Positions 250 through 39,398 of a stretch of 64,000 bases of DNA are shown piece after piece (positions within the stretch are counted from its first letter, which is position 1; each line of letters opens with the position of its first letter). Made by a program: the position numbers and the translations under genes. The notes under the pieces were generated by a model that saw only the letters and a list, made by a program, of their open reading frames with translations, searched no databases and was not told the DNA's origin. The stretch covers positions 2,080,001-2,144,000 of the forward strand of contig OZ243916.1 of NCBI GenBank assembly GCA_965213675.1, in the 5' to 3' direction. The stretch is from an uncultured Candidatus Binatia bacterium. GTDB taxonomy: Bacteria > Desulfobacterota > Binatia > UBA9968 > JAJDTQ01.

Positions 250-536
250 GCCCGCGTCCCTTCCTCGCCCCGCATTCCCCCGGTTCTTTCGATGAGTACC
301 CGCATGGCGTCAGCCTGAGTGGCCAGCGACTGCATTGCTTCACGGTGACGCACATCCAGCGCCTGCATCGTTTCGCGGTGACGCGCATCCTCGCGCTTCT
401 CACGCTGGTCGCCAGCCCTGCGCATTTGCTGGAGGCCCCTCCACACGAGGATGACTCCCGTGATCCCGATGGCCAGTTGTCCGGCTCCGATGGCCAGTTG
501 TCCGGCGGCGAACCATTCCACCATTGTCATGTCCAT
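246..536 (-). CDS. Small single-TM/coiled-coil hypothetical protein
   Basis: 96-aa ORF with hydrophobic N-terminus (AGQLAIG x2) then a charged helix. GGAG upstream; ATGA overlap with the next gene. Confidence 0.65.
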   Translation of the reverse strand: MDMTMVEWFAAGQLAIGAGQLAIGITGVILVWRGLQQMRRAGDQREKREDARHRETMQALDVRHREAMQSLATQADAMRVLIERTGGMRGEEGTRA

Positions 537-33746: not shown

Positions 33747-33829
33747 GAACGGCGCAAGCTCCCAGGCCGTGCCGGCCACGGTCCGGGCCCGGAGCGCTGG
33801 ACACGGTCATTGACGAAGCGGTGCGCCGC

Positions 33830-34231
33830 GTGAAGAACGTCACCTCCTATCGCGTCATCTACGGCGACACGGACCAGATGGGCGTCGCCTACTACGCCAA
33901 CTATCTTCGCTGGTTCGAGATCGGCAGGACCGAGTTCATGCGCGAGGCCGGCGTTCCGTATGACCAGGCCGAACGGGAGGGCATCTTCTTCCCCGTGACC
34001 GAAGTGCAGTGCCGCTATCGCAAGCCGGCCCTCTACGACCACCTGCTGTGGATCGAGACCACCATCGAATCCGTGAGTCCGGTGGCGGTGCGGTTCCATT
34101 ACCGCATCGGTCTCGAAGGGGAGCGCACCGCGCTGGCGTCGGGCTGGACGAAGCACGCCTGCCTGGGCCGCGAGCGCCGGCTGACGCCGTTGCCCGAAAC
34201 CTATGTCCGCCGCCTGGGGCTCACGGTCTGA
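33830..34231 (+). CDS. YbgC/FadM-like acyl-CoA thioesterase
   Basis: RVIYGDTDQMGVAYYANYLRWFEIGR motif. Start may be 33821. Confidence 0.9.
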   Translation: MKNVTSYRVIYGDTDQMGVAYYANYLRWFEIGRTEFMREAGVPYDQAEREGIFFPVTEVQCRYRKPALYDHLLWIETTIESVSPVAVRFHYRIGLEGERTALASGWTKHACLGRERRLTPLPETYVRRLGLTV

Positions 34232-34270
34232 CCGCGGCTCCGACCCAAGGGCGCTGTTCCAAACGATGTA

Positions 34271-35605
34271 TCAGGGAGCCGGCTCCACCGCGGCTTGCAG
34301 GCCGGCGGCGGCTTCGAGGCGAGGGGCGCCGTAGGTCTCCGCGACACACCGCAAGAGCGCAATATTGTTCGCGTGTCCCGTCATCCGCGCGCTCACCCGG
34401 CCCCGGATCGGACGGCCGATGAGCGAGAAGTCGCCAACGATGTCCAGTATCTTGTGACGTACGAACTCGTCGTCGAAGCGCAGGGCGGTGTTGATGACCC
34501 GCTCGTCGTCAATGAGGATACAGTTGCCGAGGCGGCCGCCCTTGATCAACCCCATCCGTTCGAGTTTCTCGAAATCGCGCAGGAAGCCGAAGGTCCGCGC
34601 CGGGGCGATCTCGTCCCGAAACGATCCCGCCCCCTCGTGGACGTAGGTGTATTCCTGGGTGCCCACGGGGCTCGGATAACTCAGGTGATAGCGCACCGTG
34701 AAGACGTCCGCCGGTTCGATGACGATCTCCTCCGGTCCGCTGCCGCGAACACGCAGGGTTCGATCGATGACGATCTCCGGACACACCCCCTCCTGTTCTT
34801 CCACCCCCGCTTCCTCGATCAGGCGGCAAAACTCCAGGGCCGAGCCGTCCAGGATGGGGATCTCGCCGTACATCTTGATCAGCAGATTGGTGATGCCATA
34901 GGCGTGAAGGGCCGCCATCAGGTGCTCGACGGTACCCACCACCGCGCCGCCACGGCGCAACGACGTGGCGAAGTCGGTGGAGCGCACGAAGTCCAGGTGG
35001 GCCGGAACGGTGGCGTCGCCGGAGATGCCGCCGAAGTGAATGCCGCTGTCGGCCGGCAACGGGTGCAGGATCACGCCGGTGCTGACGCCCGAGTGCAACC
35101 CCAGCCCGCATGCCACGACGCTCTTGCGGAGGGTTCTCTGGCGTGCGCCGCCGTCCGCGCCAACAGCCGTGGCCGACGGCGCGGGCATCCGGCACAACCG
35201 CGGCCGTTCCCCGGCCGCCGGACCCTCGCGCCCCGCGTTGCCGCAGGCGCGCTCGATGGTGGCCAGCAACCCGTCCAGGGAAAGCGGCTTCTCGATGAAG
35301 TCGAAGGCGCCGAGCTTGGTCGCCGTGACCGCCGTGTGGATGCTTCCATGACCTGAAATCATGATGACGCGGGCCTCGGGATGCGCGCTCTTGATCTGCT
35401 TCAACAGCACGATTCCGTCCATCTCGGGCATCCAGATGTCCAGCAGGATCACGTCGGGCGCCTCTTGCGCCACCCGTTGCAGGACCTCGGACCCCTCGGT
35501 CGCCGCGATCACCCGGTAACCCTCGTCGGCAAGGATCTCGCGTACGGTCTCGCGGATGACGTCCTCGTCATCCACCACCAGCACGGTTCGTTGCGCTGCC
35601 TGCAT
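34271..35605 (-). CDS. lpxC: Response-regulator receiver domain fused to UDP-3-O-acyl-GlcNAc deacetylase (REC-LpxC)
   Basis: REC: VDDE, LLDIWMP, ISGHG, FIEKP. LpxC: QRTL, GLHSG, TVEHLMAAL, DGSA, ARTFGF, HKILD..GD, GH..N. One uninterrupted frame. Confidence 0.92.
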   Translation of the reverse strand: MQAAQRTVLVVDDEDVIRETVREILADEGYRVIAATEGSEVLQRVAQEAPDVILLDIWMPEMDGIVLLKQIKSAHPEARVIMISGHGSIHTAVTATKLGAFDFIEKPLSLDGLLATIERACGNAGREGPAAGERPRLCRMPAPSATAVGADGGARQRTLRKSVVACGLGLHSGVSTGVILHPLPADSGIHFGGISGDATVPAHLDFVRSTDFATSLRRGGAVVGTVEHLMAALHAYGITNLLIKMYGEIPILDGSALEFCRLIEEAGVEEQEGVCPEIVIDRTLRVRGSGPEEIVIEPADVFTVRYHLSYPSPVGTQEYTYVHEGAGSFRDEIAPARTFGFLRDFEKLERMGLIKGGRLGNCILIDDERVINTALRFDDEFVRHKILDIVGDFSLIGRPIRGRVSARMTGHANNIALLRCVAETYGAPRLEAAAGLQAAVEPAP

Positions 35606-35670
35606 GGTCCTTGATCCCTCCACAAAAGGCGCGGGGCCGAACCCCGGCTTCCGCGCTCGCGCGTCACGCG

Positions 35671-37914
35671 TCACGACGCCTCGCTCACGCGCACCTCCAG
35701 CGGTTCCGCCTGCGCCGCCACCGGAAACTCGATGATGAAGCGTGTGCCGCGGGGCTGGTTCTGGCGCACGCGAATGTAGCCCCGATGGTCGGCCACGATG
35801 GTGCCGACTATGGAGAGCCCCAGTCCCGTGCCCTCGTCCTTGGTCGAATAGTACGGTTCGAAGATCCGACCCCGATCCTCCCGGGCGATGCCCCCGCCCT
35901 CGTCCGCCACCTCCAGCCGCACCATGCCGAAGGCCTCATCGAAACGCGTGGTGATCTCGATGCGTCCGCTGCCGCCCAGGGACGCCACCGCATTGTCCAG
36001 CAGGTTGAACAAGGCGCGCTTGATCTGCTCGCGGTCCAGCTCCACCAGCGGAATGGCGTCCCGCTCCAGGAAATCGAATTCCACTTCCCGGTGGCCTTCC
36101 TTGAAGAGGAACAGCGCCTCCCGCACCACCTCGTTCAGGTCGTCGGCGCCGAGCCTGGCCGTGGGCAGGCGCGCGAAATTCGAGAACTCGTTCACCAGTG
36201 TCTTGAGCTCGTCCACCTGGCGGATAATCGTGGAAGTGCACTTGTCGAGCACCGCGCCGTCTCCGTCCAGAACGTTCTCGTAGCGCTTGCGCAGACGCTG
36301 CGCCGATAGCTGAATCGGCGTCAGCGGGTTCTTGATCTCGTGGGCGATGCGGCGCGCCACCTCGCGCCATGCCTCCACGCGCTGCATGCTCTGGATCTCG
36401 GTGAGATCTTCCATAAACACCATGACCCCGAGCGTGTGGCCCTCGTCATCGCGCAGGTCGGCGGCCACGGTCATAAGCGTCCGGCCGCGCTCAGCGCCGC
36501 CGATACGCACGCCGCACTCCACCGTGACGCCGTCCTTCACCTGCTCGATGACCTCGAGCAGGGGCTGCAACTCCGGCGCCTCCAGCGCCTCCTCGTAGCG
36601 CCGCTGCAGGATGTCCGGGGCGCGGAGATCCAGGATCTGCTCCGCGGCCTTGTTGACGATGGTCACCTTGCCGAACCGATCCACCGAGATCACCCCGGCG
36701 GTGATGTTGGCGAGCAGCGTCTCCATGTATTGCCGCCGCTGCTCCAGTTCGGAGTGTGTGCGCTTGAGGTCCTCGGTCATCTGGTTGAATGAGGTCACCA
36801 GCGTGCCGATCTCGTCGTCGCCACCGCTCTCGATGCGGTAGTCCAGGTTGCCGTGGGCGACTTCGTGGGTGCCCTCGGCCAACTGCTGAATCGGCACGGT
36901 GATGCCCTTGGCCAGCGCAAAGCCGAACCACGACGCCGCGAAGATCATCACCAGGGTGATGAGCAGCAGCGTCAGCATGTACGCGTTCTTCACCGGCTCG
37001 TTGAGGATGGCCATGTGTTTGTACTCTTCGTACGAACGGGCGATGGCCTGCGCCTTCTTGCTGACGCTCACGGGCACGAAGTAGTCCACCACCACCGCGC
37101 CGATGATCCGCCTGCCCTCGCCGTAGACCGGCACCGCGCCGCGCAGCACGTCGCCATCACCCAGCGCCTCGCTCCGCGTCACCTCGAGGCCGCGCAACGC
37201 GCTATCGAGGAAATCCGCCCGGGGCCTGACCATCACTCCCGTGGGCACCTGGTCGTTGAACGCCTTCACCAACGCCGTGCCGTCCGGCTTGTAGACCTCC
37301 ACCGTGCCGAGGTTGTATTCCCGCTGCTTCTCCTCCACCAGGCGCTTCAACCGGTCTGCGTTCCGGGACTCGAAGAGATCCGCGTCACCGATGCGGTAGC
37401 TCAGCTCGCGGGCGAAGAAGAGCGCGTTGTCGGCCGAGTTCCGGTAGTAGGCGGAGCTGATGTCAAGGGAGCCGCTGAGCGCGTTGACCACCTGGGCGTC
37501 GAACCATTTGTCCACGGAACGGGTCACGAGGCTTCCGGCTGTCAGGAACAGCAGCACCGTGGGCACGAGCGAGAGACCGATGAACGCCAGCACCAAGCGG
37601 GCCTGGAGGCGCGAACCCAGAATGCGCCGGCGCCGGTCCAGCACCAGTTTCAGGAGGTTCCGCGCCACCAGGAACACCAGCAGCGCCAGCAGGATGATGT
37701 TGATGTTGACCAGCAGGAAGAACGCGATGTTGCTGACGAGGGTGTAGTCCGCGGAAACCTCGGGCAGGATATCCTCGAAAAACGCGAACAGCAGAATCAT
37801 CAGGGCGGCGATGAGAATCAGCCACCATTCGCGCCGGCGGCGCCTGCCTTCCGCGAATTGAAGCGCCTGCGCCTTTCCTTCGTCGGCTTTGGCTGTGCTC
37901 ATTGGAGTGGCCAT
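35671..37914 (-). CDS. ntrY: NtrY-like membrane sensor histidine kinase (TM-periplasmic-HAMP-PAS-HisKA-HATPase)
   Basis: WREVARRIAHEIKNPLTPIQLSAQRL H-box, NLLDNA, D.G.G, FEPYYSTK and GTGLGL motifs. Confidence 0.9.
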   Translation of the reverse strand: MATPMSTAKADEGKAQALQFAEGRRRRREWWLILIAALMILLFAFFEDILPEVSADYTLVSNIAFFLLVNINIILLALLVFLVARNLLKLVLDRRRRILGSRLQARLVLAFIGLSLVPTVLLFLTAGSLVTRSVDKWFDAQVVNALSGSLDISSAYYRNSADNALFFARELSYRIGDADLFESRNADRLKRLVEEKQREYNLGTVEVYKPDGTALVKAFNDQVPTGVMVRPRADFLDSALRGLEVTRSEALGDGDVLRGAVPVYGEGRRIIGAVVVDYFVPVSVSKKAQAIARSYEEYKHMAILNEPVKNAYMLTLLLITLVMIFAASWFGFALAKGITVPIQQLAEGTHEVAHGNLDYRIESGGDDEIGTLVTSFNQMTEDLKRTHSELEQRRQYMETLLANITAGVISVDRFGKVTIVNKAAEQILDLRAPDILQRRYEEALEAPELQPLLEVIEQVKDGVTVECGVRIGGAERGRTLMTVAADLRDDEGHTLGVMVFMEDLTEIQSMQRVEAWREVARRIAHEIKNPLTPIQLSAQRLRKRYENVLDGDGAVLDKCTSTIIRQVDELKTLVNEFSNFARLPTARLGADDLNEVVREALFLFKEGHREVEFDFLERDAIPLVELDREQIKRALFNLLDNAVASLGGSGRIEITTRFDEAFGMVRLEVADEGGGIAREDRGRIFEPYYSTKDEGTGLGLSIVGTIVADHRGYIRVRQNQPRGTRFIIEFPVAAQAEPLEVRVSEAS

Positions 37915-37955
37915 GACGGCTTCCCAAGCGCGGAATACGAATGCACCGGATCACA

Positions 37956-38120
37956 CTAGTGTCGCGTTCCGCAAATACGTTGACAAATCTGCTTGTCCTT
38001 TCTGCCGTCCGCTGCGTTGCTCTTCCTCGCGTGGCACACGCCACTGCTCGCCATCGCGCCTTGCCGACAACAAAATTTCCTGCGCATCTTCGTCAACGTA
38101 CTTGCGGAACGCAACACTAG
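37956..38120 (-). mobile_element. Family A element (first of a tandem pair)
   Basis: CTAG flanks; 157 bp; arms TGTCGCGTTCCGCAAATACGTTGAC / GTCAACGTACTTGCGGAACGCAACA. Confidence 0.9.
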
Positions 38121-38281
38121 TGTGGTGTCTGGTTAATTCGCGTCATAATCTGCGGGTCATTTTCGCCGTCGGCTGCGTTGCTCTTCCTCGCGTGGTACAC
38201 GCCACTGCTCGTCATCGCGCCTTGCCGACAACAAAATTTCCTCCGCACATTATGACGCGAATTAACCAGACGCCACACTAG
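38117..38281 (-). mobile_element. Family A element (second of the tandem pair, different arm sequence)
   Basis: CTAG flanks (left one shared); 157 bp; arms TGTGGTGTCTGGTTAATTCGCGTCATAAT / ATTATGACGCGAATTAACCAGACGCCACA. Confidence 0.9.
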
Positions 38282-38360
38282 ACCTTCCACCCGCAAAGCA
38301 CAAAGGGAAAGATCGTCCAGGGAAGAGCCTGATCATGCGCGCCAGCGCTTCGCAGCGCGC

Positions 38361-39398
38361 CTACAAGAGCCGCTTCTGGCGCTTCTCCCGATCCACGCGG
38401 GACGCCGACTGCGACCGTCCCAAGTGGCGGTAGGCCACCGGCGTGGCCACCCGGCCCTGGGGACGGCGCTCGAGAAAGCCCGCCTGAATGAGGTAAGGCT
38501 CGTAGGCGTCCTCCACGGTGCCGCGCTCCTCACCGATGGCGGCGGCCAGCGTGTCCAGGCCCACGGGACCGCCATCGAATTTGTCGATGATGGTGGCGAG
38601 GATCAGCGTATCCATCTTGTCGCACCCCTGCTCATCCACCTCCAGCATCTCCAGTGCCCGGCACGCCACCGGGCGGGTGATCCGTCCCTGTCCATGGACC
38701 TCCGCGTAGTCTCGCACCCGGCGCAGCAGCCGGTTGGCGATGCGCGGCGTGCCGCGGGAACGACGCGCGATCTCCAGGAAGCCGTCATCGTCGCCGCCCA
38801 CGCGCAACAGTGCCGCCGAGCGGGACAACAACCGGGCCAGCACTTCCGGTTCGTAGAAGTCGAGGCGGAACACCGCGCCGAACCGGTTGCGCAAGGCCGG
38901 CGTCAAGAGGCCGGAGCGCGTGGTGGCGCCGACGAGGGTAAAGCGCTTGAGATCGAGCTTGATGGACTTGGCGCCCGGCCCCTGGCCGATCATCACGTCC
39001 ACCTGGAAATCCTCCATGGCCGGGTAGAGCACCTCCTCCACCACGTGGTTGAGCCGGTGGATCTCGTCGATAAACAGGATGTCGCCGGCATCGAGGTTGG
39101 TGAGCAACGCGGCGAGATCGCCGGGGCGTTCGATCACCGGACCCGAGGTGGGGCGGATATTCACGCCCATCTCGTGCGAGACGAGGTGCGCCAGGGAGGT
39201 CTTGCCAAGCCCGGGCGGGCCGTGGAAGAGCAGATGATCGAGGACGTCGCCGCGCTGTTTGGCGGCGGTGATGGCGATGGCGAGGTTGGCCTTGACCTTG
39301 TCCTGCCCGACGTATTCGTCGAAGTACTGAGGACGCAGGCTCGAATCGAAGACAACGTCCTCTTCCGTGCCCGTGGGCGCAATGGTCCTGCTTTCCAT
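38361..39398 (-). CDS. ruvB: Holliday junction branch migration ATPase RuvB
   Basis: [24 protein letters not shown] and [17 protein letters not shown] motifs. Confidence 0.98.

Follow-up and report, generated by a model that had tools for sequence, protein, structure and literature searches.

The window analyzed here, 64,000 nt of contig OZ243916.1 from an uncultured Candidatus Binatia genome (handle G000; all coordinates are positions in the window), encodes a protein in which an N-terminal receiver (REC) domain is joined in frame to a complete LpxC, next to the gene for an NtrY-like sensor histidine kinase. LpxC catalyzes the committed, flux-controlling step of lipid A and lipopolysaccharide (LPS) synthesis and is a long-standing antibiotic target. 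The architecture, the intact residues of both halves, the sole-copy status of the gene, its wide conservation and the orthology of the kinase and REC together strongly suggest phospho-control. We therefore favor, with a probability of about 0.6, a two-component system in which the enzyme LpxC is itself the response-regulator output and LpxC function is under phospho-control.

The REC-LpxC gene and its reading frame

The reading frame at 34271..35674 on the minus strand is open over 467 amino acids (aa). Because a GGAGGG Shine-Dalgarno-like motif precedes the ATG at 35605, and because the public 444-aa gene call agrees, this codon was taken as the likely start, giving a 444-aa product. Pfam searches of the 467-aa frame placed Response_reg at residues 31-140 (1.6e-32) and LpxC at residues 179-444 (1.6e-81), both in the same frame. 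A preliminary description of this DNA had proposed an in-frame succession of receiver, linker and full LpxC; that arrangement is borne out, with a linker of 32 aa. The motifs it quoted (DDE, LLDIWMP, ISGHG, FIEKP, TVEHLM, HKILD and GH) are all present in the translation, the last as TGH. The parts of the gene, numbered on the 444-aa product, are as follows (pLDDT, predicted local distance difference test).

34271-35605, minus strand: REC-LpxC gene, 444 aa, comprising REC, linker and complete LpxC
35240..35587, minus strand: REC domain, residues 7-122, from Pfam; acidic D12/D13, D56 as phospho-acceptor (codon 35438-35440), S84, F103 as switch residue, K106
35144..35239, minus strand: linker, residues 123-154, Pro/Ala/Gly-rich, predicted disordered from low pLDDT
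34331..35143, minus strand: LpxC domain, residues 155-425; E227-H228, T338, H384-K385, D388, D392, H411
34271..34330, minus strand: C-terminal tail, residues 426-444, and stop codon; pLDDT <50 for residues 433-444

Sequencing data were used to check the linker. Logan contigs of four public runs cover the fused gene and differ from it by substitutions only, with zero indels and no frameshift. REC, linker and LpxC are bridged by two single Logan contigs (X1 record 1 and X4 record 18) over 34000-35931, with one substitution each. The four runs represent at most three samples of one study, possibly including the source sample, such that their support for the frame is not independent. Single-base variants between runs of the study (34376 T>A, 34436 A>G, 35657 T>C and 35983 C>G) resemble strain variants.

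An in-frame ATG at 35186-35188 (Met140) lies within the linker and had been raised as a possible start for LpxC alone. It is not preceded by a Shine-Dalgarno motif. We aligned 79 short REC-LpxC proteins, the most distant sharing 31% identity with that of the window, and found a Met in the linker of only 26. Separate translation of LpxC is therefore no conserved feature, and the objection fails. Across the same alignment the linker varied from 22 to 64 aa (median 34) and was unconserved in sequence.

The LpxC domain

The LpxC half is complete. It matched PF03331 with 274 bits against a cut-off of 27, spanning model positions 1-266 of 268, and the NCBIfam model TIGR00325 (lpxC) with 245 bits against a cut-off of 187. 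Alignment with Pseudomonas aeruginosa LpxC chains (~1e-53) matched the EH, ARTFGF, HKxxD...D and GH motifs, whose residues (EH, HKxxD, the further Asp, the GH His and ARTFGF) we take to hold the zinc-ligand and catalytic roles. Every one of the 79 short forms has E227, H228, H384, K385, D388, D392 and H411, while T338 was kept in 76. The earlier statement that zinc ligands and catalytic residues are retained is upheld by this alignment. Over a broader set of 124 fused and 73 stand-alone domains, the catalytic residues were at least 97% conserved.

The source genome (4.53 Mb, 97.7% complete) contains exactly one LpxC match, the fused gene, answering the question of whether a second lpxC is present; it also contains two lpxA-type matches and one lpxB match. 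Nearly every carrier has no LpxC besides the fused one (see below), and judging from gene content the protein is probably the working housekeeping LpxC of lipid A synthesis. Both halves look functional and under purifying selection from their conservation.

Most fused LpxCs end ~20-35 residues past the catalytic His. Eight residues form a signature of the fused clade (V164, T176, G177, H234, Y236, K244, C260 and T409), each present in at least 90% of the 124 fused domains and at most 5% of the 73 stand-alone domains. K244 stands where Glu is usual. These eight positions are candidate sites of contact with the REC domain.

The receiver domain and the adjacent kinase

The REC domain matched PF00072 with 112 bits (cut-off 30.2) and carries the Asp-Asp/Asp/Thr-Ser/Lys quintet. 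D13, D56, S84 and K106 were invariant in all 79 short forms, D12 was present in 76 and F103 in 73. The best matches among solved structures were 4d6x and 5m7n, presumably both Brucella NtrX receivers. A complete NtrX-type receiver had been claimed, and with its phospho-residues intact and these structures as best matches the domain is indeed of NtrX/NtrC type. The whole protein is not NtrX: the model NF051870 scored 127 bits against a cut-off of 600, over the REC portion only, and no protein of G000 reached that cut-off. Gene adjacency and orthology make the neighboring kinase the putative phosphodonor to Asp56.

The kinase gene and its predicted parts lie immediately upstream.

35671..37914, minus strand: NtrY-like sensor histidine kinase, 747 aa, from Pfam, hydropathy and H-box
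kinase residues ~27-55, 57-93, 103-131 and 307-340, minus strand: four predicted transmembrane helices, from hydropathy
36997-37521, minus strand: extracytoplasmic loop, ~175 aa, from hydropathy
36763-36915, minus strand: HAMP domain, from Pfam
36397-36729, minus strand: PAS domain, from Pfam
36340-36342, minus strand: codon of His525, in the HEIKNPL box of the HisKA domain, from Pfam and H-box
35716-36036, minus strand: HATPase_c domain, from Pfam
35606..35670, minus strand: 65-nt gap between kinase stop and REC-LpxC start, with a hairpin (35632-35646) and the GGAGGG ribosome-binding motif

NtrY_N (PF19312) matched the kinase weakly (29.4-29.9 bits, cut-off 23.2), as the sole match in G000. 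The order NtrY_N, HAMP, PAS, HisKA, HATPase_c is that of NtrY, and it is on this domain content that the kinase is called NtrY-like. With NtrY_N above its cut-off, this domain order and a position 65 nt upstream, the earlier report of an adjoining NtrY-like kinase stands.

Co-occurrence of fusion and kinase, proposed as a check, was confirmed in part. Within the window's class, all 14 of 14 genomes have the kinase directly upstream of the fusion, and each of five genomes tested in which it is not adjacent encodes one full-length ortholog elsewhere. Over the 103 fused loci described below, the two genes were adjacent in 29. No REC gene was present in the ~1.1-1.5 kb flanks of the five relocated orthologs. 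Frames of 1007-1423 aa at three loci (L096, L098 and L113) were considered as triple fusions of kinase, REC and LpxC; they proved to be GC-rich alternative-frame artefacts, with the kinase in another frame.

Distribution of the fusion

To delineate its spread, we sampled 401 genomes drawn evenly from the window's phylum (112 families) and defined the fused clade by matches at E<=2.9e-83. The clade was present in 103 of the 401 genomes and 28 of the 112 families. By local BLAST, 72 of the 103 loci are short REC-LpxC forms and 30 are long forms, while a contig end truncates the remaining 1. Long forms are ~685-745 aa, and in two of them (L162 and L170) some or all of REC is missing from the open frame. 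The objection that relatives might always encode REC and LpxC separately fails, as the 103 fused-clade loci are in frame save at contig ends or where N-termini are missing. A search for the combined architecture, also proposed earlier, agreed: the best 120 protein matches all carry both Pfam domains. The underlying protein search returned 7917 matches at E<=0.001 among 8000 scored candidates, a set not limited to fusions.

The fused gene was the sole Pfam LpxC match in 99 of 103 carriers. Single copies were also the rule in the sample at large, with 372 of the 377 genomes having any LpxC match containing exactly one. The only fused carriers that also had a stand-alone lpxC were G034, G199 and G312, while G074 had two partial matches. 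In these two-copy genomes (loci L090 and L184 in G034, L143 and L186 in G199, L091 and L185 in G312), the kinase gene is directly downstream of the stand-alone lpxC, and a GAFTGA activator behind the kinase was seen only at L185. The two-copy genomes are possible intermediates, with two receivers sharing a single kinase.

A second phylum showed a higher frequency still. The fused clade was found in 57 of 61 genomes (G401 and G406-G465, with the NCBI label of G401 being Nitrospinaceae; loci L278-L293 and L014). Of these fusions, 52 of 57 lie in open frames of 675-797 aa and are mostly of the long form. Stand-alone LpxC was absent from the 61-genome sample at E<=1e-35, and the fusion looks to be the norm there.

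Fusions were also recovered from named organisms. When a distant short form was used for a scan, the best 80 of 80 named loci were full-length fusions. Carriers included the cultured Syntrophorhabdus aromaticivorans UI, 'Spirochaetes bacterium COTS27', Thermodesulfovibrionia metagenome-assembled genomes (MAGs) and many Ca. Binatia MAGs; MAG names are only as reliable as the classifications of their submitters. In the ESM Atlas, 17 clusters of at least 50 members carry both domains, and a 50%-identity library contained ~45 fusion clusters of both lengths.

Some genomes of the window's phylum had no LpxC match. These were several 99-100%-complete genomes of family f49 (genus g78, including G079, G146, G177, G207, G237, G265 and G293) and likewise G319 (genus g211, same family); the sister-genus genome G041 has one. 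The f49 genomes without LpxC may represent a branch of the phylum that lacks lipid A.

Long forms and unfused relatives

In the long forms, Pfam domains occur in the order Response_reg, Sigma54_activat, AAA_lid_14, LpxC. The preliminary description had noted that the window protein has LpxC where an AAA+ and helix-turn-helix (HTH) output would be expected, and this observation is strengthened by relatives that retain AAA+ and HTH between REC and LpxC. Examples, of 685-743 aa, are L082:4768-6954(-), L084:3827-6052(+), L085:4913-7096(-) and L087:4743-6851(-), with 23 others. In an alignment with ZraR (PDB 1ojl), Walker A and a stretch of Fis-type HTH are retained by the L082 protein, which has Lys-Ala in place of the Walker B Asp-Glu and lacks GAFTGA.

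These losses are general. None of the 27 long forms examined in the window's phylum has GAFTGA, nor has any of 13 others (11 from the second phylum, plus L013 and L014). The Walker B Asp-Glu was found in none of the 14 long forms, out of 27, in which the pattern located the strand. The Walker A glycines and lysine were invariant in 27 of 27, as were the equivalents of the REC and LpxC key residues. Judging from Walker A, the long forms may bind nucleotide still.

Unfused relatives point to the source of the regulator. Of 8 stand-alone lpxC loci of the same phylum, 6 have a kinase ortholog directly downstream and co-oriented with lpxC. Three of the stand-alone loci had long enough flanks to reveal the next gene, and in each the kinase is followed by a REC-AAA+ regulator that has an Asp-Glu Walker B and either GAFTGA or GSFTGA. 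In another 38 unfused kinase loci, lpxC is upstream in 18 and a GAFTGA regulator downstream in 17. The order lpxC, kinase, GAFTGA activator was seen among L184-L187, L189, L191 and L294-L332.

Searches of G000 with proteins from unfused loci identified both partners of the window pair. The REC of canonical activators matched the fusion REC best (127-129 bits, versus 83-87 for the next match; 51-57% identity). The unfused-locus kinase matched the window kinase best (524 bits, versus 96 for the next). By these similarity scores, the window kinase and REC are orthologous to the lpxC-linked kinase and sigma-54-activator pair.

Published work links such regulators to lpxC. According to the accessible part of a study of Desulfovibrio vulgaris (Rajeev et al. 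2011, PMC3333781), lpxC is the single mapped target of the NtrC-family regulator DVU2934, and the ortholog operon of Syntrophobacter fumaroxidans has lpxC as its neighbor. In Rhodobacter sphaeroides (8.8-fold) and in Caulobacter crescentus, transcription of lpxC is repressed by NtrYX, as given in the accessible portions of PMC7240162 and PMC12444477. From gene order and the text of the D. vulgaris paper, we infer that the DVU2934 system is probably orthologous to the pair described here. Our scan with an unfused kinase did not recover named D. vulgaris or S. fumaroxidans loci.

LpxC phylogeny and origin of the fusion

Two trees were built from LpxC domains, both by 'quick' searches and both with several rows on long branches. 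The first contained 55 fused and 20 stand-alone rows (LG+G4). The second contained 79 fused and 20 stand-alone rows (LG+C20 PMSF). In both, fused domains and stand-alone domains from the same and other phyla were split by a branch with a Shimodaira-Hasegawa-like approximate likelihood ratio test (SH-aLRT) value of 100.

Within the fused clade, starred branches record a minimum of 3-4 changes between the long and the short form. The only well-supported case of a short form nested in a long-form clade is L288 (supports 99 and 100), so AAA+ and HTH have been lost there by deletion. Both basal fused clades consist of short forms and the deep forks are unsupported, so the first fusion may have been long or short. 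The fused LpxCs of L204 and L207, from MAGs with a Thermodesulfovibrionia (Nitrospirota) label, group with L104 and L105 (family f82 of the window's phylum) with SH-aLRT 100. This grouping points either to mislabelled bins or to a kinase and REC-LpxC pair that was laterally transferred.

LapB, a component of LpxC control in Escherichia coli, was also compared across genomes. No LapB ortholog was found in G000, where the best match was 33 bits against a cut-off of 363. The only match to a LapB-type zinc ribbon (PF18073) in G000 turned out to be RadA. Among 60 genomes of the phylum, strong full-length LapB matches (NF008757, 270-322 bits) were confined to those with stand-alone LpxC (10 of 30, against 0 of 30 with the fusion). 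Several of the fused genomes have weaker LapB-like proteins with tetratricopeptide repeats and a zinc ribbon (54-85 bits).

Gene order and the match scores make it appear that an lpxC-linked two-component system captured its target enzyme by fusion. A two-component system controlling lpxC transcription would have fused its regulator to the enzyme (long form); the fused AAA+ domain would have lost its sigma-54 and ATP-hydrolysis motifs; and some lineages, including that of the window, would have deleted AAA+ and HTH to leave REC-LpxC. The full scenario, in which a sigma-54 activator swallowed its target lpxC, transcriptional control gave way to phospho-dependent control replacing the LapB/FtsH circuit, and the AAA+ and DNA-binding domains were then shed, is put forward tentatively, at slightly worse than even odds.

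Structure prediction and proposed mechanism

AlphaFold2 (AF2) was used to model both forms. The short form (79 sequences) gave a pLDDT of 88.8 and a predicted template modeling score (pTM) of 0.87, with a pLDDT of 81-96 for the REC block and 50-54 for residues 121-150. The long form (27 sequences) gave a pTM of 0.42, with three short helices before the LpxC domain; the two alignments differ in depth, such that the comparison of pTM values is indicative only. As free domains would score lower, a pTM of 0.87 despite a disordered linker implies that REC is packed against LpxC in the model. A two-chain prediction of REC (1-128) with LpxC (150-444), run without controls, gave no answer (scores of 0.00 and 0.00) and is evidence neither way.

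In the mechanism we propose, the kinase would sense an envelope or metabolic cue and autophosphorylate on His525. The phosphate would pass to Asp56 of the REC domain fused to the sole LpxC. The phosphorylation state of REC would then set the rate of UDP-3-O-acyl-GlcNAc deacetylation, and hence flux into lipid A. By analogy with relief of autoinhibition in CheB, unphosphorylated REC would pack on LpxC, and phosphorylation would release or rearrange it. We infer the phosphotransfer, the effect on LpxC (its sign included) and the docking mechanism from the features described above.

Alternative explanations

Several observations weigh against phospho-control of LpxC activity by the kinase. We compared 129 fused with 19 canonical activator RECs and found no fused-specific position (at least 85% of fused, at most 15% of canonical); there is therefore no obvious adaptation of the receiver to its new partner, and such adaptation is visible only in the LpxC half, in its eight signature residues. 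The kinase is non-adjacent in 74 of the 103 loci with a fusion, a number that includes some truncated contigs. A long, variable and unconserved linker speaks against rigid allosteric coupling, and for the docked state the AF2 pTM is the one indicator. Strong LapB matches were absent from 19 of 30 stand-alone genomes too, and related genomes are not independent. Finally, the estimated contamination of G000 is 8%, though the locus lies on a 3.97-Mb contig.

The main rival to control of activity is control of turnover. Here the receiver would set LpxC abundance, with phosphorylation exposing or hiding the protein for Lon, FtsH or ClpXP in replacement of the LapB/FtsH circuit. RssB-type receivers gate proteolysis, and the NCBIfam RssB-type receiver matches the REC at 86 bits, far below its cut-off. 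The flexible, unconserved linker would suit a tethered degron or adaptor. The distribution of LapB, with no ortholog found in G000 and strong matches limited to stand-alone genomes in the 30 versus 30 comparison, would also fit, as would the proteolytic control of LpxC, known from E. coli and possible through Lon in alphaproteobacteria (accessible part of PMC12444477). However, the pTM of 0.87 suggests a packed pair and no free tag, and the fusion has no protease or adaptor gene beside it; the DegP-like protease in the vicinity belongs to an exported type and is encoded convergently. We consider turnover control unlikely, while ranking it above the explanations that follow.

A receiver that acts independently of phosphorylation is improbable. 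It could serve dimerization, act as a scaffold, localize LpxC at the membrane kinase, or be a relic of the fusion. Such roles would be compatible with the kinase being non-adjacent at most fused loci and with the lack of fused-specific REC residues, and Ght of Neisseria meningitidis is reported to place LpxC at the inner membrane (accessible part of PMC12444477). Yet D13, D56, S84 and K106 are invariant, and D12 nearly so, in the 79 short forms, with the same conservation in 27 long forms. Conservation of the phospho-residues therefore disfavors a relic or pure scaffold. Moreover, a single kinase ortholog persists in all five of the non-adjacent genomes tested.

Less probable again is a trigger enzyme, in which the LpxC moiety of long or ancestral forms would sense a lipid A precursor on behalf of a DNA-binding regulator. 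The long forms do retain the ZraR-aligned Fis-type HTH region and an invariant Walker A lysine, and AF2 places three short helices ahead of their LpxC domain. The window protein and 71 other short forms, by contrast, have no DNA-binding domain and have kept their REC and LpxC residues, and a gene that is the sole LpxC in nearly all carriers would encode a working enzyme.

An assembly or annotation artefact, or LpxC translated alone from the ATG at 35188, could draw on the in-frame linker ATG and on errors in a MAG with 8% estimated contamination, but is effectively refuted by a single frame in 100 of 103 phylum loci (the exceptions being 1 contig-end cut and 2 missing N-termini), by fusion in all 57 fused-clade matches of the second-phylum sample and in 80 of 80 best named loci (one from a cultured isolate), by the absence of indels from the Logan contigs of four runs, and by a linker Met in only 26 of 79 short forms with no Shine-Dalgarno motif before the ATG here.

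Surrounding locus

Upstream of the kinase and fusion, the same-strand genes are ruvC, ruvA and ruvB. Downstream are a convergent thioesterase and the DegP-like protease, then yceD and rpmF. The hairpin in the gap between kinase and fusion (35632-35646, minus strand) is terminator-like, being GC-rich and followed by a T-rich run, and could attenuate read-through; the hairpin count of 1 does not exceed the shuffle mean of 2.4. A scan of 33800-38600 for sigma-70-like promoters found none (shuffle mean 0.7); it lends no support to an internal promoter and is too weak to exclude one.

Comparison with known systems

Matching LpxC activity to envelope demand is an active question. Known means of LpxC control, according to the accessible text of a 2025 review (PMC12444477), are LapB/FtsH in E. 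coli, possibly Lon, transcription through NtrYX and ChvGI in alphaproteobacteria, and localization by Ght in Neisseria; within that text, its section on other organisms does not list a receiver-LpxC fusion, and 'fusion', 'fused' and 'response regulator' are words absent from the main text. The full-text literature searched, with subscription journals outside its coverage, contained no description of a receiver-LpxC protein, and literature on Binatota and LPS yielded nothing relevant on the fusion. Enzymatic outputs of response regulators are known; to our knowledge, LpxC as such an output is new. Public annotation calls the fused proteins plainly LpxC, and the receiver therefore goes unnoticed.

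If the proposed reading is true, the fusion is a direct phospho-switch on LpxC, unlike the known proteolytic, transcriptional and localization controls. Under the full scenario given above, LPS homeostasis would gain a new principle, and regulatory rewiring by fusion of a regulator to its target a clear worked case. The fusion is apparently the normal state of whole lineages in two phyla (103/401 and 57/61 sampled genomes). It would also offer a testable evolutionary series, from the lpxC-kinase-activator order through a regulator-enzyme fusion to a minimal REC-enzyme, and a simple kinase-plus-enzyme pair for study in vitro.

Among natural LpxC fusions, the bifunctional LpxC/FabZ (NF009667) is another example. 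Its partner is a C-terminal metabolic enzyme, and the window protein matches that model at 207 bits against 465, over the LpxC part only. LapB (YciM)/FtsH of E. coli likewise acts on LpxC post-translationally, whereas the signal here would come by phosphotransfer, in a genome in which no LapB ortholog was found. The DVU2931-DVU2934 system of D. vulgaris has a regulator that targets lpxC and matches the unfused lpxC-kinase-activator order; its control, in the accessible part of the study, is transcriptional and its proteins are separate (PMC3333781).

NtrY/NtrX is the closest counterpart in signaling. NtrX is described, in the accessible part of PMC6158489, as an atypical enhancer-binding protein. 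The window kinase shares the NtrY layout (multi-transmembrane NtrY_N, HAMP, PAS, HisKA and HATPase), and the long forms share the GAFTGA-less AAA+ and the HTH of NtrX. The systems differ in that the enzyme itself would be the output here, that the window protein has neither AAA+ nor HTH, and that the unfused orthologs of the window regulator are canonical GAFTGA activators rather than NtrX-like.

The active site of CheB is blocked by its receiver until phosphorylation lifts the block. Its catalytic fold and pathway are unrelated to those of LpxC, and NCBIfam CheB models match the window protein over REC only (70-77 bits, versus ~293-342). CheB likewise consists of an N-terminal receiver, a flexible linker and a C-terminal hydrolase, and serves as our working model for the fusion.

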